From an uncultured archaeon (lineage in GTDB: Archaea > Asgardarchaeota > Thorarchaeia > Thorarchaeales > Thorarchaeaceae), in contig CAZSWP010000003.1 in assembly GCA_964610875.1 (NCBI GenBank), positions 101,148-125,147 on the forward strand: 24,000 bases of DNA, in the 5' to 3' direction. The translations under genes and the position numbers were made by a program. Positions 1,322 to 23,415 of this stretch are shown here, piece by piece (position 1 is the first letter of the stretch; every line of letters starts with the position of its first letter). The notes beneath the pieces were generated by a model. The model had not been told where the DNA came from and ran no database searches. It was given only the letters and a program-made list of their open reading frames with translations.

Positions 1322-2716
1322 ATGATGGTAAGAAATGAGATTGTGGAGGAACTAGACTCATTTTTCAATCCGAAAAGAGTTGCACTAGTAGGAGCCTCTG
1401 CTGACTATAGAAAACTGGGTAATTCAATATTGATGAATTTACTTGCATCAGAAATTGAAATTTATCCTATTACTATCAGTCGTGACCGTGTTTTAGGCGT
1501 CAATGCATATCCAAATCTCCATGATTTACCACAGCCTGTTGATCTTGTTATCATTGCTGTGGCAGCAAAATATTGTACTGGACTCATGTCAGAAGTCCGA
1601 AAAGCTGGAGCAAGAAATGCTATAGTAATATCTGGTGGATTTAGTGAAACTGGGGAGGAGGGGAAGAAACTTGAGAAACAACTTGTAGATGCTGCTAAGG
1701 CTGAGGGTGTCAGGATAATTGGTCCTAATTGTGTAGGAGTTTCAAATAGTAGATTGTTCAATGGCACATTTACTATGATGCCCGAGAGAGGAAATATTGC
1801 TCTTCTCTCTCAAAGTGGTGCATTAGGTGGAATGACCATATACACTACAAGAACAAAACGAATTGGGATGAGCAAATTTGTTAGCCTTGGGAATGCAGCT
1901 GATGTCAGTTTCACTGAAGTCCTTGAGTATTTCAGATATGACCAGAGAACGAACGTGATTGCAGTCTATGTTGAAGGTGTAGATGAGGGTCGTGATTTTT
2001 ATGAAGCATTAAAGAGAGCCTCGAGCGAAAAACCTGTTGTAGTTCTCAAGGGGGGAAGAAGTGAGGCTGGGGCAAAAGCAACCATGAGTCATACAGGGTC
2101 TCTTGCAGGTTCTATCAAAGTCTTTGATGGAATGATACGCCAAGCAGGTTGCGTGACTGCTCCTACATTTGATTCATTCTTTGAAGTTTGTAAATTATTT
2201 GATTATCAACCTTTACCGAAAGGTCGTAATATTGGTATTATTAGTAATACAGGGGGAGCTGGTGTTCTCGCTACTGATAAAGCGACCGACATGAACCTTG
2301 AAGTACCAGTTTTAAATCCTGAAACACGAAATGAATTAAGACAAGCCCTCTCTCCTATGGCATCAATTGAAAACCCAATCGATGTTGTTGCTAGTGGTGG
2401 AAGAAGGGAATACCGTATTGCTACAGAGTTATTGTTGAAAGATTCCAATGTTGATATGTTGTTAGTCATATGTGGCGTTCCAACCTTTGCAGGGATGACC
2501 CAAACTGAACATGCTGCTGGTACACTTGAAGGGGTACGGATGGCTGAAACTAGTAAACCAGTAGTGGGTGTTTGGCTCGCTGGCAATGTTGGAAAACCTG
2601 GAAAAGATCTTCTGGAGATGAATCGCATTCCTTGTTATGATGATCCAGCATTAGGTATTCTCTGCATGACTAAGATGGCTGAATATGCTGAAATGCACAG
2701 TCATATGAACTTGTAG
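1322..2716 (+). CDS. acdA: NDP-forming acetyl/acyl-CoA synthetase, alpha subunit (CoA-binding / succinyl-CoA-synthetase-like)
   Basis: 464 aa. CoA-binding N-terminus RVALVGASADYRKLGN, plus SQSGALGG and the phosphohistidine-loop-like MSHTGSLAGS. Length is typical of archaeal ACD alpha. No ATP-grasp beta subunit is adjacent. Confidence 0.8.
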   Translation: MMVRNEIVEELDSFFNPKRVALVGASADYRKLGNSILMNLLASEIEIYPITISRDRVLGVNAYPNLHDLPQPVDLVIIAVAAKYCTGLMSEVRKAGARNAIVISGGFSETGEEGKKLEKQLVDAAKAEGVRIIGPNCVGVSNSRLFNGTFTMMPERGNIALLSQSGALGGMTIYTTRTKRIGMSKFVSLGNAADVSFTEVLEYFRYDQRTNVIAVYVEGVDEGRDFYEALKRASSEKPVVVLKGGRSEAGAKATMSHTGSLAGSIKVFDGMIRQAGCVTAPTFDSFFEVCKLFDYQPLPKGRNIGIISNTGGAGVLATDKATDMNLEVPVLNPETRNELRQALSPMASIENPIDVVASGGRREYRIATELLLKDSNVDMLLVICGVPTFAGMTQTEHAAGTLEGVRMAETSKPVVGVWLAGNVGKPGKDLLEMNRIPCYDDPALGILCMTKMAEYAEMHSHMNL

Positions 2717-2737
2717 TAATTGTATTATTTGTAATAC
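2713..2737. repeat. three 9-bp-phased heptads GTAGTAA-tt-GTATTAT-tt-GTAATAC between the convergent acdA and RHH genes
   Basis: Read directly. The units start at 2713, 2722 and 2731. The array fills nearly the whole 25-nt intergenic gap and overlaps the acdA stop codon. Confidence 0.65.
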
Positions 2738-2741
2738 ACCA

Positions 2742-3047
2742 TTATTCAAGATACTTGTTTGCAAGTTCCGGAAACTCGTCTGTAACTGCATCCCTAAGCT
2801 TGCGCTCGACCCACATACTTAGATTGATTGCACGCTCATTTCTTACAGACTGAAGACAAGACCTAAGTTCAGTTGTAACACTGAATGACATTATTGGACT
2901 TCGTCTCTCACTGTTAGGAACAGCTGAGGGAGTTTCAGTCCTTCTAACCCGGGTCTGGCTGGTAGATTCAGTTGTTGATGTTGTTTCGTCTTTGTCTTTT
3001 TCATCTCTACCTTGTTCATCTTTCCGGTACTTTCCTAAGAGACTCAT
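2742..3047 (-). CDS. small putative ribbon-helix-helix DNA-binding protein with a disordered S/T/E/K-rich N-terminus
   Basis: 101-aa ORF whose ATG overlaps the stop of the upstream ATPase gene (TAATG on the minus strand, 3045-3049). The C-terminal MSFSVTTELRSCLQSVRNERAINLSMWVERKLRDAV shows a strand-helix-helix pattern like CopG/Arc/MetJ folds. This is pattern-based, not searched. Confidence 0.55.
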   Translation of the reverse strand: MSLLGKYRKDEQGRDEKDKDETTSTTESTSQTRVRRTETPSAVPNSERRSPIMSFSVTTELRSCLQSVRNERAINLSMWVERKLRDAVTDEFPELANKYLE

Positions 3048-4039
3048 TATCTGACCTCCCTAAGTAACGTCGCATATGCATCGGAAACTAGTGATGCTAT
3101 CTCTTCATTAACCTCAGGATTTCCATTGCTCCTGAAGTTTTCAGCAGCTACTTGTTGACAACCACGAGCTAACATTCTGATATCGCGAGGATTGCCTTTT
3201 GCAGCTGAATTGATTATATCAATCGCCTTCTCATGGAATGGATAAAGATCAAAATCATTTAGATCGAATGTGTCAATCTCACCACGTGCATATGCCAACC
3301 GTCGTCCTATGAACTCCTTTGCCTTCATAGCATCAAATGCAGGCACATCAAGGGGTTCAGTTCTATCAGCAATCTGTGGAAGATATGATAGCATAGCATT
3401 CCAATACATTGCAGTACCACTCATCACAAGAGTCACAATTGGTTCATCTAATGACTGTCCATGGCCTGCAATCATCTCTTCTGTAGGTAAATCTGCCAAG
3501 TAGCGTAATTTATGAAATGCTGCTTCCTGATTATCCGCAACATCTTCTATGAATAGTGCAGTACGACTTTGTTCTTCCATATATCTCCGAAGACATTCTT
3601 GAGCCACTGCTTCGATAATCTGACTAGACTCCCAAGACCTCCGATATTTTACTCGTAATGAATCGGCAATAGCTGCCGACATTTGCTTCTCGTATAACCC
3701 AGTCATTCCAACATAACCAGTGACGAATTTGTTACCACGTCGATCTGCCAGTGTTGGCAGGTCTCTCAGGGCAAGTAACATCAATGTACTTTTTCCAGAA
3801 CCAACAGGTCCACGAAGGAATACATGTCGCTCGTTTGTTATTATCAAATCTACAATAGAGTCAAGAAAGTCTGCATGCTCTATATAGAGCCGACTATCTG
3901 GCATCTTGAAACCACGAAATGGTGAGAATTTGGCCCTGATTTTATCCTCCCAAGCTTTTAGGGTTTCTTTTCGTGTATTGAAGTGACGTATTAGAGCACT
4001 CTCATGAATTGCAATTGTCATGGCTCGGCCTCGTATCAC
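3047..4039 (-). CDS. AAA+ P-loop ATPase of the ExeA/TniB/Orc1-Cdc6-like (AAA_22-type) clade, without a winged-helix domain
   Basis: 330 aa from GTG 4039, with an in-frame ATG at 4021. Walker A GPVGSGKS, Walker B ALFIEDV, sensor-1-like LVMSGT, and a C-terminal AKGNPRDIRMLARG arginine motif placed like the ExeA GxPRxIN motif and Orc1 sensor 2. The protein ends about 40 aa after that motif. Confidence 0.75.
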   Translation of the reverse strand: MIRGRAMTIAIHESALIRHFNTRKETLKAWEDKIRAKFSPFRGFKMPDSRLYIEHADFLDSIVDLIITNERHVFLRGPVGSGKSTLMLLALRDLPTLADRRGNKFVTGYVGMTGLYEKQMSAAIADSLRVKYRRSWESSQIIEAVAQECLRRYMEEQSRTALFIEDVADNQEAAFHKLRYLADLPTEEMIAGHGQSLDEPIVTLVMSGTAMYWNAMLSYLPQIADRTEPLDVPAFDAMKAKEFIGRRLAYARGEIDTFDLNDFDLYPFHEKAIDIINSAAKGNPRDIRMLARGCQQVAAENFRSNGNPEVNEEIASLVSDAYATLLREVR

Positions 4040-4057
4040 ATGTAGTTATTGTAATAC
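4033..4057. promoter_or_regulatory. three 9-bp-phased heptads GTATCAC-at-GTAGTTA-tt-GTAATAC at the 5' end/promoter of the ATPase-RHH operon
   Basis: Read directly. The units start at 4033, 4042 and 4051. The array lies 12-36 nt upstream of ATG 4021 and overlaps the GTG at 4039. Confidence 0.6.
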
Positions 4058-4070
4058 AATTTCAATACAC
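4050..4070 (+). repeat. copy 1 of a ~20-nt direct repeat, TGTAATACAATTTCAATACAC
   Basis: Aligns with 4158-4176 (TGTAATACATTCCAATCAC): 18 identities, one mismatch and two 1-nt indels. Confidence 0.6.
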
Positions 4071-4149
4071 TGCCCATTCATAAAGGTTCCGTGCGTTCAA
4101 AATACTTTATTCAAACAGCGCCAATAAAAAGCAATGTTTCAATAACATG

Positions 4150-4165
4150 GTATTAACTGTAATAC
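4150..4165. promoter_or_regulatory. heptad dyad GTATTAA-ct-GTAATAC upstream of the small membrane-protein gene
   Basis: Read directly. Lies 24-39 nt upstream of ATG 4189. Confidence 0.55.
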
Positions 4166-4188: not shown

Positions 4189-4533
4189 ATGGCACAACCT
4201 TTTTCAACCAATTGCTTTCGTGATTCAGTAGTTGACGCAAGGAGTCACAAGAAAATGGACGTTGACAGGACTCAGCGAATTCTGACATCATTAATGATCA
4301 TCAGTTTTCTAGTATTCGGCCTTTTAGCTGGAATCATTTTGATCACTGATGCACCATTGGACGCATCCACTACCTCACTGCCTTTTGCTTTTCTATTCAT
4401 ATCAGGAATGACACTGATAATTACCGGACAAATAAATGAGCGTCCAAAACGGGTAGATAGATACCTACGACAATGGTTGGTCATCTGTGTTTTTGTTGCC
4501 GTTCTTAGTGCTCTTGCATTTACACTTGCATAG
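4189..4533 (+). CDS. small hypothetical membrane protein (three predicted TM segments)
   Basis: The ORF track starts at ATG 4147, but 4150-4165 is a heptad dyad and ATG 4189 (MAQPF...) is in frame, so 4189 is preferred. Hydrophobic stretches are ILTSLMIISFLVFGLLAGIILI, LPFAFLFISGMTLIITG and WLVICVFVAVLSALAFTLA. Confidence 0.5.
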   Translation: MAQPFSTNCFRDSVVDARSHKKMDVDRTQRILTSLMIISFLVFGLLAGIILITDAPLDASTTSLPFAFLFISGMTLIITGQINERPKRVDRYLRQWLVICVFVAVLSALAFTLA

Positions 4534-6559: not shown

Positions 6560-6575
6560 GTAATTCATGTATTAC
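6560..6575. repeat. heptad dyad GTAATTC-at-GTATTAC filling the 22-nt gap between the pan stop and the Trm5-like start
   Basis: Read directly. An in-phase related octamer, GTATATAC, follows at 6587. Confidence 0.6.
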
Positions 6576-10711: not shown

Positions 10712-10821
10712 GGGCCGCTAGTCTAGCCCGGCTATGATGTCTCGTTTACACCGAGAATTCGCATGAGCATCATGCTCATCGACATCGAAGGTCGCTGGTT
10801 CAAATCCGGCGCGGCCCACCA
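10712..10821 (+). tRNA. tRNA-Val (anticodon UAC, 10747-10749) with a ~32-nt intron at a non-canonical site (variable-loop region) and encoded CCA
   Basis: Hand-folded. Acceptor GGGCCGC/GCGGCCC, anticodon stem TCTCG/CGAGA with loop TTTACAC, T arm GCTGG-TTCAAAT-CCGGC, A73, CCA. There are 37 nt between the anticodon stem and the T stem where about 5 are expected. The insert contains the hairpin ATGAGCA/TGCTCAT. Confidence 0.85.
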
Positions 10822-10887: not shown

Positions 10888-11009
10888 GCGGGAGTAGCCA
10901 AGCCCGGTCAAAGGCGGTGGACTTAAGATCGGATGAATTACGGGGTCATTACGTATAGGACATCCACTCTCGTAGGAGTCCGTGGGTTCGAAGCCCACCT
11001 CCCGCACCA
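10888..11009 (+). tRNA. tRNA-Leu (anticodon UAA, 10924-10926) with a ~34-nt anticodon-loop intron, long variable arm and encoded CCA
   Basis: Hand-folded. Acceptor GCGGGAG/CTCCCGC, anticodon stem GTGGA/TCCAC, loop CTTAAGA plus insert (41 nt between the stem halves), 14-nt variable arm TCTCGTAGGAGTCC, T arm GTGGG-TTCGAAG-CCCAC, A73, CCA. Confidence 0.85.
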
Positions 11010-16436: not shown

Positions 16437-16574
16437 GCCGCAGTGGCCTAGCCTGGCAGGGCGCGAGACTCATAATCTGATTGAACTACTCAATCAAAAA
16501 TATGGGGTCAACGTCTCGAAGGCCCGAGATGAGAAATCTCGAAGTCGAGGGCTCGAATCCCTCCTGCGGCACCA
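16437..16574 (+). tRNA. tRNA with CAU anticodon (elongator Met or Ile2; 16471-16473) carrying two introns (~38 nt in the anticodon loop, ~23 nt in the variable/T-arm region) and encoded CCA
   Basis: Hand-folded. Acceptor GCCGCAG/CTGCGGC, D arm GCCT-AGCCTGGCA-GGGC, anticodon stem CGAGA/TCTCG, loop CTCATAA, T arm GAGGG-CTCGAAT-CCCTC, A73, CCA. There are 45 nt between the anticodon stem halves and 28 nt between the anticodon stem and the T stem. It is not initiator-like: G1:C72, and no triple G:C in the anticodon stem. Confidence 0.8.
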
Positions 16575-20080: not shown

Positions 20081-20096
20081 GTAATACTTGTATTAC
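20081..20096. repeat. heptad dyad GTAATAC-tt-GTATTAC (16-bp palindrome) between the DUF1294 gene and the 3' end of tRNA-Thr
   Basis: Read directly. It starts 5 nt after the stop codon, at a convergent junction. Confidence 0.65.
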
Positions 20097-21116: not shown

Positions 21117-22160
21117 TTGCAGCAACCCCTCGATACATTCTTCCAATACGTATATGGATTCTTTAACATACTATCAGATATGCTACAACCACTGGGTATT
21201 CCTTTAGGACCTGGTGATTGGTTTTTCCTAATCTATACTATAGTTTTTGTAGCAATAATAGCTGCAATCGCACGTCGAGGTGGCAGCGGTAAGAGTGATG
21301 TTTCTGCTGGTGTCACACGTATCATTGCCTCTACTGGTGACGTTTCAGCTGGGATGACTGGTACAAAGAAACTTAGTTTTCTGAAGACTCCTGGCGATGC
21401 GTTAGTATTCCTTAGGGTAGAGGAAAACGCTGTTCAACAAGCAATCACAGCTGTCGAATATTATGCCCAACAAGGCGAACTTGACGATTCAATGAAGGAT
21501 CTTCTCATTGCAGTCTATCAGACTCGACTTGATGGTGTCCGTGCGGCAATGGCAAAGGACGAAGAACTCAAGGAGATTGTTGACACCGATGCAGCAATGG
21601 ATAGGGCACGTTCTGATTACTTGAGAAAACTTGCTGCCATGTCTGGGACTGCAGTCGAATCTGATGAAGAGCAAGCTGGACCTCCAAGTGTTGGTATGCC
21701 TGATTCTGCTGAAACCACAACCACAACAGTTGCGGCATCCACACCAGATACAGCACCAAGTGGTGGACCTCCAGGTGGTACAACACCAAGCGGCGGCCCT
21801 CCGGGTGGTGCAGCACCAAGTGGTGGACCTCCTGGCGGTGCTCGCCCAAGCGGTGGACCTCCAGCAGGCGGCCCACCCAACGGTGCAGCTCCTAGTAGTG
21901 GTCCACCAGGTGGCGCAGCACCAAGCGGCAGTCCTTCGGCAGGTGAAACAACTCCTAGTGGTCCACCAGGTGGTGCAGCTCCAAGTGGCGGCCCTCCGGG
22001 TGGTGCAGCTCCAGGCGGAGGAGCTCCTAGTAGCGGTCCACCAGGTGGTGCAGCACCAAGTGGTAGTCCCTCACCAGGTGGTGCAACTGGCAAGAGTTCA
22101 TTACAATCCGAGATGCTTGCAGAGATGGAACGGCTCAAAGCCCTAATGAGTGGAGATTAG
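21117..22160 (+). CDS. membrane-anchored protein with a helical domain, a long Pro/Gly/Ser/Ala decapeptide-repeat linker and a short C-terminal amphipathic helix
   Basis: 347-aa ORF with a TTG start at 21117 and an alternative ATG at 21180. One TM segment (WFFLIYTIVFVAIIAAIA), a helical region (aa ~95-180), about 11 copies of (A/T)(A/T)PSGGPPGG, and the C-terminus SLQSEMLAEMERLKALMSGD. Confidence 0.7.
   Translation: MQQPLDTFFQYVYGFFNILSDMLQPLGIPLGPGDWFFLIYTIVFVAIIAAIARRGGSGKSDVSAGVTRIIASTGDVSAGMTGTKKLSFLKTPGDALVFLRVEENAVQQAITAVEYYAQQGELDDSMKDLLIAVYQTRLDGVRAAMAKDEELKEIVDTDAAMDRARSDYLRKLAAMSGTAVESDEEQAGPPSVGMPDSAETTTTTVAASTPDTAPSGGPPGGTTPSGGPPGGAAPSGGPPGGARPSGGPPAGGPPNGAAPSSGPPGGAAPSGSPSAGETTPSGPPGGAAPSGGPPGGAAPGGGAPSSGPPGGAAPSGSPSPGGATGKSSLQSEMLAEMERLKALMSGD
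21753..22086 (+). repeat. about 11 degenerate tandem copies of a ~30-nt unit encoding (A/T)(A/T)PSGGPPGG
   Basis: In-frame units, e.g. gca cca agt ggt gga cct cca ggt ggt. Copies differ mostly at synonymous positions. A larger unit encoding APSSGPPGGAAPSGSPS recurs about 135 nt apart. Confidence 0.9.
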
Positions 22161-23315: not shown

Positions 23316-23415
23316 TGGCGGGCCCGCGCGGATTTGAACCGCGGATCCCTTGCTTACTCCAGATTGTAAATTATCTTAGGAGGCAAGTGCCCGATCCAGG
23401 CTAGGCTACGGGCCC
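23316..23415 (-). tRNA. tRNA-Arg (anticodon CCU, 23378-23380) with a ~22-nt anticodon-loop intron and encoded CCA
   Basis: Hand-folded on the minus strand. Acceptor GGGCCCG/CGGGCCC, D arm GCCT-AGCCTGGATC-GGGC, anticodon stem CTTGC/GCAAG, loop CTCCTA plus insert, T arm CGCGG-TTCAAAT-CCGCG, G73, CCA. Total 100 nt. Confidence 0.85.

Follow-up and report, generated by a model that had tools for sequence, protein, structure and literature searches.

What might a pair of overlapping genes, one for an ATPase and one for a small putative DNA-binding protein, accomplish on an archaeal chromosome that carries arrays of short, phased DNA repeats on both sides of the pair? The question is raised by a stretch of 24,000 nucleotides (nt) from an uncultured member of the Thorarchaeaceae (GenBank assembly GCA_964610875.1, contig CAZSWP010000003.1, positions 101,148 to 125,147 of the forward strand), which is referred to below, in its full length, as the window. 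Asgard archaea are the closest prokaryotic relatives of eukaryotes, yet next to nothing is known of how they control the cell cycle or organise and segregate their chromosomes. In this locus three parts come together in a concrete system that lends itself to testing: an ATPase that is very strongly conserved, with about 80% identity across Thorarchaeota, a ribbon-helix-helix (RHH) partner with a probable docking peptide, and a defined DNA word, the heptad GTAWTAC, which matches the box of the one crenarchaeal cell-cycle regulator characterised so far. We found that the two genes form a chromosomal operon that is conserved among Asgard archaea, and that its arrays belong to a family that is dispersed genome-wide in Thorarchaeota, mostly at gene boundaries, and concentrated at the operon and the adjacent region in Heimdall-type archaea. 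This contrast between dispersed and clustered arrays is by itself an unexplained genome feature.

A two-gene operon conserved in Asgard archaea

Both open reading frames (ORFs) are on the minus strand in the ORF listing of the window. The first gene (3047..4021) encodes a 324-amino acid (aa) AAA+ ATPase with an AAA_22/ExeA-type, Orc1/Cdc6-like core and a helical lid, and the second (2742..3047) encodes a 101-aa protein composed of an N-terminal peptide, a disordered linker, an RHH-like domain and a C-terminal helix. As noted in a preliminary description of this DNA, the stop codon of the ATPase gene (TAA, 3049-3047) overlaps the start codon of the small ORF (ATG, 3047-3045) within the sequence TAATG, and these coordinates were verified. 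The same description had given the ATPase 330 aa, following the ORF list, which places the start at GTG 4039, a codon that falls within a conserved non-coding array. Both start and length had to be corrected to ATG 4021 and 324 aa because nearly all of the homologues listed, about 110 of them full-length, start there, with a length of about 324 aa (323-327 in a few) and the N-terminus MTIAIHES; the rare longer calls are upstream extensions. An exact database look-up returned a record of the 324-aa product and none of the 330-aa product. A Shine-Dalgarno-like GAGG (4029..4032, minus strand) is located 7 nt ahead of ATG 4021, and GAGG(T) is found 6-10 nt ahead of the ATG in the orthologues.

The small ORF, for which 217 homologues were found, follows the ATPase gene in all 63 related loci in which both genes are readable, and in nearly all of these the two genes overlap or are no more than 4 nt apart. 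The expectation that the ATPase would be syntenic with a conserved small gene for a putative DNA binder was thus borne out in every relative examined. The closest ATPase homologues carry Thorarchaeota annotation and, among the matches listed, those from thorarchaeotal metagenome-assembled genomes are 75-87% identical. More distant members occur in Heimdall/Gerd-, Frey- and Odin-type Asgard archaea, where each of them is again followed by a small ORF; the Heimdall-type clade is 75-87% identical within itself and about 43% identical to the thorarchaeotal proteins. The ATPase family is a narrow one, since searching 1.84 billion representative proteins with its profile gave only 26 matches at E ≤0.001.

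Among the genes around the pair in the window are those for ADP-forming acetyl-CoA synthetase, V-ATPase subunit D, NAC, Trm5/Tyw2, PAN, MBF1, TFE-alpha, GatD/GatE, PGK and tRNAs that probably contain introns. These housekeeping genes, together with the Thorarchaeota annotation of the closest homologues, identify the window as part of an Asgard archaeal chromosome, and the housekeeping neighbours of the pair are unchanged across the thorarchaeotal loci. The hypF product, HypF, recurs as a neighbour of the pair in the Heimdall and Frey lineages and in that of a 63%-identical relative (L004). On a Frey-type contig (L206, 1-2358 and 5001-6569) only 2.6 kb separate the pair from orc1/cdc6 and the gene for the PolD small subunit, a neighbourhood typical of archaeal origins. 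No orc1/cdc6 gene was found near the Heimdall or thorarchaeotal loci examined.

The ATPase

The ATPase motifs pointed out earlier are present and are invariant or nearly so in 26 homologues; they are the Walker A motif GPVGSGKS at residues 71-78, the Walker B motif ALFIEDV, and GNPRDIRML, which contains the sensor-2 motif GNPRDIR. Pfam AAA_22 matched the window protein with 24.1 bits (E 4.7e-5), below the 27-bit cut-off, and the match to AAA_16 was also sub-threshold; nine of ten family members matched AAA_22, the best with an E value of 6.5e-14, and several sources label the family 'ExeA'. The AlphaFold2 (AF2) model, with a predicted local distance difference test score (pLDDT) of 71, consists of an alpha/beta core followed by a helical lid and ends at residue 324. 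No winged helix is present in this model, and the Pfam scan gave no match to WHD_Cdc6.

A Foldseek search with the model returned ORC2 of A. pernix as the top match (E 3e-7), followed by ORC subunits and TnsC, and a profile of the wider ATPase family matched ORC1, Sulfolobus Cdc6-1, ORC5, ORC4 and Cdc6 in the PDB over residues 60-285, with E values of 1e-9 to 1e-5 overall and of 1e-9 to 3e-8 for the ORC1/Cdc6 chains, TnsC being next. The NCBIfam orc1/cdc6 model aligned at E 0.029 over 61 residues only, and PDB sequence searches with profiles built from thorarchaeotal proteins were uninformative for both the ATPase and the small protein. The modelled core and lid and the ORC/Cdc6 profile matches together indicate that the protein is an Orc/Cdc6-like AAA+ module without a DNA-reading domain of its own. 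Pfam, the AF2 model, Foldseek and the family profile thus agree with its initial placement among AAA+ proteins of the AAA_22/ExeA-Orc kind that lack a winged helix.

The small partner protein

The pattern of conservation divides the small protein into three parts, a peptide MSLLGKYRKEE at the N-terminus (MSLLGKYRKDE in the window copy, codons 3015-3047), a variable linker rich in acidic and Ser/Thr residues, and about 55 aa that form a C-terminal block. The RHH-like domain comprises approximately aa 50-91 (2775-2900) and is followed by a C-terminal EFPxxAxKY helix. In the AF2 monomer model helices are predicted at residues 59-72, 76-91 and 93-99, the first two at pLDDT 80-90 and preceded by an extended segment, while the N-terminus and the linker are disordered.

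The RHH character of this ORF had been proposed from its predicted strand-helix-helix pattern, and it is upheld by way of a relative. A Heimdall orthologue, which aligns with the window protein over the full length in BLASTP (E 2e-12), scores 25.9 bits with Pfam RHH_1, above the 20.5-bit cut-off. Two more orthologues reach 18.9 and 19.1 bits with RHH_1, and the protein of the L004 lineage reaches 17.1 bits with RHH_3. Because a homologue that is related end to end passes RHH_1, we accept the small protein as a member of the RHH family by transitive homology, with a fold that is predicted. A tblastn search of phage and archaeal-virus genomes with the RHH domain gave no match.

Related ATPases are also found with other partners. 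In one locus (L208, 2390-5021) a related ATPase lies beside a D5-type primase and a tRNA gene, in a setting that resembles an integrated element. A small RHH-like ORF (3000-3199), with a weak NikA-like match, overlaps the start of this ATPase gene, and the ATPase is followed by a KaiC/RecA-like protein whose N-terminus includes three copies of SVLSKY[RK]K. As the peptide is here attached to a different partner, its recurrence suggests that the N-terminal peptide of the small protein is an ATPase-docking element. In a Hadarchaeia genome (L211, 3351-4918) a related ExeA-like ATPase gene has its start overlapped by a gene for a 217-aa winged-helix protein (HTH_24) and not for an RHH protein, so that an ATPase with a separate DNA binder appears to be a recurring theme.

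The upstream array and the operon promoter

The array upstream of the operon (4033..4057) reads GTATTAC-aa-TAACTAC-at-GTGATAC on the gene (minus) strand; on the forward strand its heptads are GTATCAC at 4033, GTAGTTA at 4042 and GTAATAC at 4051, in 9-bp phasing. When 46 distinct orthologous upstream regions were compared, array positions 1-8 (GTATTACA), 12, 14-15, 20 and 22-25 were invariant, positions 16, 18, 19 and 21 were nearly so, and the flanks were variable. The conserved positions of the middle unit (A12, T14, A15 and C16) match the heptad register.

A TATA-like box, TTTATGAA on the gene strand (4077..4084, minus; orthologue consensus ttttatat), precedes the array. Anchoring the orthologues on the array reveals a conserved block, acCacacattttatatc, at -38 to -22, and the distance between the TATA 7-mer and the first G of the array is 22 nt in 27 of 34 cases. 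The distance from the end of the array to the ATG of the ATPase gene ranges from 13 to 38 nt among orthologues. By the geometry of archaeal promoters, an element that begins 22 nt past the TATA box covers approximately +1 to +25. Given the fixed distance, the first 25 or so nucleotides of the predicted transcript (about +1 to +25) would coincide with the array, a classic position for an archaeal operator, and we consider it a putative operator. It had been said to sit on the predicted promoter and start; it does lie at the predicted transcription start site and in the 5' untranslated region, past the TATA box, but not at the start codon. The possibility that the GTAWTAC motif is itself a TATA box was rejected, since the promoter has a conserved TATA box of its own, 22 nt upstream of where the array begins. 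Blocking the recruitment of RNA polymerase is the usual mode of repression in archaea. The same polymerase-blocking mode has been proposed for repression by aCcr1 (PMC9976878), a 58-aa RHH protein that is essential in Sulfolobales (PMC9976878, PMC9976892).

Heptad arrays in the window and in thorarchaeotal genomes

The downstream array (2713..2737) includes two to three heptads, GTATTAC-aa-ATAATAC-aa-TTACTAC on the gene strand and GTAGTAA, GTATTAT and GTAATAC on the forward strand at 2713, 2722 and 2731. It starts 4 nt past the stop codon of the small ORF and overlaps the stop codon of the convergent acetyl-CoA synthetase gene. The heptad coordinates and the exact 9-bp phasing reported for both arrays were verified in the sequence, and both arrays are conserved around orthologous pairs, the upstream one in the 46 distinct orthologues mentioned above and the downstream one in 51 of 61 loci, where an array containing GTAWTAC is found within 50 nt of the small-ORF stop. 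The perfect unit of the downstream array flips between orthologues.

Two other aspects of the preliminary description require revision. It had the arrays bracketing a self-contained unit, but they are members of one genome-wide family, at least 11 such arrays are present in the window, and a third, two-heptad array (GTATTAA-ct-GTAATAC, 4150..4165) occupies the divergent intergenic region shared with the upstream array. It had also remarked that both arrays end identically and in the same orientation; TTGTAATACA is indeed found at both (2729-2738 and 4049-4058), but the orientation says little because TGTAWTACA is palindromic except for its centre base. The divergent neighbour (4189-4533) is a small membrane protein, and the array at 4150-4165 is located 24-39 nt upstream of its gene, which probably starts at ATG 4189 (MAQPF...), judging by the conserved N-terminus of the orthologues.

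The excess of the motif in the window is large. TGTAATACA occurs 7 times when 0.25 are expected, and 11 of the 15 perfect GTAWTAC heptads have a neighbour matching at least six of seven positions at exactly 9 bp; no such neighbour was found at 7, 8 or 10-15 bp. Arrays with at least two units number 10, as compared to 0.02 in simulations. The excess extends to 580 kb of thorarchaeotal loci, where TGTAWTACA is found 260 times against about 5 expected, approximately a 50-fold excess, with a density of 1.8/kb in non-coding and 0.23/kb in coding DNA; with sites on this scale the module can hardly be called self-contained. Away from the operon there are 161 copies in 462 kb of thorarchaeotal sequence, or about 0.35 per kb. 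Aligned contexts of GTAATAC give GTAnTAc-TT-GTAATAC-AA-tTAnTAC, and the spacer of paired units has the four-base form in 159 of 163 cases. The positions of sites off the operon were determined in loci L127-L203 and the window; by rough ORF calls, 30 of the 141 distinct ones are no more than 120 nt upstream of a start codon. A literature search on this motif in Thorarchaeota found nothing.

In the window, arrays past stop codons are located at 1242-1266, 6560-6575 and 20081-20096. A three-heptad array at 658-682 lies inside a HEAT-repeat gene (7-1239), where it encodes V[IL]SV[LI]QVS. Five orthologues, whose proteins share only 36-57% identity over the segment concerned, have retained this array, and nearly all of their Val codons at the array are GTA, which suggests a constraint at the DNA level.

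The motif at the operon in other Asgard lineages

The L004 relative, with an ATPase 63% identical and a G+C content of 31%, has a single TGTAWTACA in 13 kb, which is located 93 nt upstream of the ATPase gene. Three Heimdall-type loci include 14, 9 and 16 copies of GTAWTAC when about 1.2 are expected. The copies begin just upstream of the ATPase gene, cross the operon, and for the most part lie in an ORF-free region directly downstream of the small ORF; one or two copies are found beyond this region, and none in the 5-6 kb left flank of the three loci. The ORF-free regions are 1-2 kb long (L204, 6353-7304; L209, 7386-9453; L210, 7351-8484), have a G+C content of 23-30% and include no ORF longer than 64 aa. 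Their arrays consist of 2-7 phased units and are the only part of the region common to the three genomes. A search of the window and the Heimdall-type loci with Rfam detected tRNAs only, and thus neither the arrays nor the ORF-free region can be attributed to a known RNA family. This region may serve as a large regulatory region, or its role may resemble that of a centromere or an origin.

A model for the locus and its alternatives

The model that we favour, and whose chance of being correct we put at about even, assigns the arrays to the local RHH protein as its binding sites; this protein would regulate its own operon at the transcription start site and be coupled to the ATPase through its N-terminal peptide. 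Dimers of the small protein would bind the palindromic GTAWTAC in arrays of two to three units with 9-bp phasing, and by occupying the array at about +1 to +25 they would block RNA polymerase, resulting in negative autoregulation. The peptide [SV][LV]LxKY[RK]K, at the tip of a disordered linker, would dock to the partner ATPase or stimulate it, as the N-terminal tails of ParG and omega act on their ATPases. The Orc1/Cdc6-like ATPase would thereby be recruited to the RHH-DNA complexes on the arrays, or remodel them. Global or cell-cycle-linked regulation and chromosome organisation are possible cellular outputs. If the small protein does bind the arrays, the aCcr1-type recognition code reaches from Sulfolobales to Asgard archaea and is for the first time coupled to an ATP-driven partner.

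A broader version of these ideas, which we regard as speculative and doubtful, is that of an Asgard-wide DNA machine, possibly under cell-cycle control, in which an RHH adaptor tethers the Orc/Cdc6-like ATPase to the arrays and which would either organise or segregate the chromosome or demarcate transcription units. In such a machine roughly a thousand gene-boundary sites per thorarchaeotal genome, a number extrapolated from about 0.35-0.45/kb, would be served, and the Heimdall-type arrays would represent one centromere- or origin-like cluster.

Several observations weigh against binding of the arrays by the local protein and against its coupling to the ATPase. DSSP assigns no strand in the monomer model of the small protein, the window protein has no Pfam RHH match even at E ≤10, and a Foldseek comparison of the monomer with the PDB gave nothing significant, an RHH antitoxin being seventh at E 7.9. 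The docking role of the peptide is supported by association only. By the rough ORF calls mentioned above, 49 of the 141 distinct thorarchaeotal sites off the operon lie no more than 40 nt past a stop codon and 59 lie inside ORFs, positions that are unusual for a simple repressor. The residues of the small protein predicted to face the DNA from the strand, S54 and S56, differ from the important K7 of aCcr1, and an hhalign comparison with the aCcr1 homologue gp29 of ATV, in register and with 28% identity, reached E 0.0018 at a probability of 15%; BLASTP found no match between the two. A canonical CdrS/aCcr1-type RHH protein encoded elsewhere in these genomes may be the real binder.

This last explanation, in which the operon would be merely a conserved target and the local protein would bind something else, is the alternative that we take most seriously, even if we think it rather unlikely. 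The heptad fits the experimentally defined aCcr1-box (PMC9976878, PMC9976892), the dissimilar strand residues and weak sequence similarity just mentioned speak for it, homologues of cdrS have been reported in most archaeal clades (PMC7439475), and a genome-wide motif such as that of the Thorarchaeota is expected of the sites of a global regulator. It accounts less well for the Heimdall-type loci, in which nearly all heptads within 11-13 kb are at the operon and the adjacent non-coding region, or for the motif-poor L004 relative, which keeps its sole copy upstream of the operon. An RHH gene located beside the densest RHH-type sites is most simply explained by self-binding, and no other aCcr1-like ORF was found in the loci examined, which cover only this neighbourhood. 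A role in partition or replication initiation, where the arrays would be cis sites, the RHH protein would bind them as centromere or iterons and the ATPase would be motor or initiator, overlaps in part with the model that we favour, but taken as the specific function it seems to us improbable. The architecture matches that of ParG/ParF and omega/delta, with an RHH protein that has a flexible tail, a partner ATPase and repeats by the operon; the closest solved relatives of the ATPase are Orc1/Cdc6; the Heimdall-type operon is flanked by an AT-rich ORF-free region of 1-2 kb with arrays of up to seven heptads; and on the Frey-type contig orc1/cdc6 and the PolD small-subunit gene are 2.6 kb away. 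On the other hand, the ATPase is outside the ParA, ParM and TubZ classes, the thorarchaeotal arrays are dispersed at about 0.35/kb instead of being clustered, the thorarchaeotal operon lies amid housekeeping genes with no long non-coding region, and orc1/cdc6 is absent near the Heimdall and thorarchaeotal loci examined.

The elements could also act as RNA, the upstream one as a stem-loop at the 5' end of the mRNA and those past stop codons as stem-loops that serve as 3'-end, stability or termination signals. The upstream element can be folded as a stem of 8-10 bp with a U-G wobble, whose energy is predicted to be -5.1 kcal/mol in the window copy and -9.6 kcal/mol in the consensus; an inverted repeat is formed by each GTAWTA-N4-TAWTAC unit, with complementary central W bases in 105 of 159; and about 35% of the distinct distant sites are no more than 40 nt past a stop codon. 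We nevertheless consider this very unlikely. The variable stem positions 9/17 and 10/16 show mismatches rather than compensatory changes, conservation within the supposed loop falls exactly on the middle-heptad positions (xxAxTAC), and in a distant orthologue (L190) the heptad register is retained and the stem is broken. W is non-complementary in a third of the units, and the flipping of the perfect unit from side to side between orthologues implies no strand polarity. The stems are short and AU-rich (-3.7 kcal/mol) with no U-tract after them, and arrays are also found within genes on either strand. A scan of genome contigs with an 18-nt hairpin pattern gave chance matches only, in unrelated taxa, and the reading of the arrays as intrinsic terminators was rejected for the weakness of the stems and the missing U-tract. 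Toxin-antitoxin, defence or mobile-element modules, finally, commonly include an RHH protein, as antitoxin or regulator, together with an ATPase, and the related ATPase of L208 is near a D5-type primase and a tRNA gene in what resembles an integrated element. The constant housekeeping neighbours across Thorarchaeota and the 75-87% identity of the ATPase do not fit such a module, PADLOC gave no match for the ATPase and a weak, chance-level one for the small protein, and scans of viral contigs found no relatives of the ATPase. We rejected these readings on synteny, PADLOC and the viral-contig scans, and give them next to no credence.

Other features of the window

Rfam identified three tRNA genes of 107-135 nt, at 10712-10818, 10888-11006 and 16437-16571, which probably contain introns. 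None of the three was called by ARAGORN, which at 23316-23415 returned a tRNA-like feature of 100 nt that is odd in having an anticodon of 4 bases. A region with a G+C content of 0.51 (21117-22160) corresponds to a gene whose protein has a hydrophobic segment at the N-terminus and some twelve repeats rich in Pro and Gly (APSGGPPGGA), with tandem repeats of 15, 30 and 45 bp at 21749-22064; Pfam gave no match to its product.

Comparison with known systems

The DNA word found at this locus has a precedent, and the statement that the locus matches no named archaeal system has to be withdrawn in this respect, since GTAWTAC is the core of the aCcr1-box. aCcr1 binds a 9-bp box described as A(T/G)G(A)TA(G)A(T/G)TACN or AGTATTA, and also as AGTA[A/T]TACN; this box resembles the older ccr-2 box TGTATTAT and has been reported to resemble the motif of haloarchaeal CdrS (PMC9976878, PMC9976892). 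Co-occurrence of cdrS and ftsZ2 has been described in all archaeal clades but DPANN (PMC7439475). aCcr1 is an RHH binder, as the small protein is predicted to be, and the aCcr1-box, AGTATTA and TGTATTAT all fit GTAWTAC, the thorarchaeotal heptad. The likeness to aCcr1 operators is one at the sequence level only; the array considered here starts 22 nt past the TATA box, and 13-38 nt separate its end from the ATG. aCcr1 is a bare RHH domain without a partner ATPase, whereas the small protein has an N-terminal extension of about 50 aa that includes a conserved peptide, and translation of its gene is coupled to that of an AAA+ gene. The sites differ as well: phasing here is strictly 9 bp, and the thorarchaeotal units are also abundant past stop codons and inside genes.

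The partition systems ParG-ParF of TP228 and omega-delta of pSM19035 resemble the pair in joining to an ATPase a flexibly tailed RHH protein that presumably acts on it, binds phased short repeats beside its own operon and regulates its own expression, as is proposed here. They differ in the ATPase, which in the present case is Orc/Cdc6-like AAA+ and not of the ParA-type Walker class, and in that the genes studied here are a chromosomal core pair with sites dispersed throughout thorarchaeotal genomes. Being of the AAA_22/Orc kind, the ATPase belongs neither to the ParA class, defined by a deviant Walker A motif, nor to the actin-like class. SegAB is likewise a two-gene operon of an ATPase and a site-specific DNA binder (putative here) with sites beside the operon, but SegA is ParA-like and the sequence and distribution of the sites are unlike those described here.

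On the ATPase side, Orc1/Cdc6, TniB/TnsC and ExeA have in common with the present protein the AAA+ core and helical lid, and they include its best fold and profile matches. Orc1/Cdc6 proteins have about 400 aa and a C-terminal winged helix, which the 324-aa ATPase lacks, and sequence-specific DNA binding would be provided here in trans by the RHH partner. The ATPase also lacks the peptidoglycan-binding domain of ExeA and the transposon context of TniB/TnsC. Taken together, the DNA word GTAWTAC and the logic of an RHH protein at its operator are already known; what appears to be new is that the RHH domain carries an N-terminal tail, that its obligatory partner is an Orc-like AAA+ protein, that the arrays are strictly phased at 9 bp, and that they are spread genome-wide in Thorarchaeota and clustered in Heimdall-type genomes.

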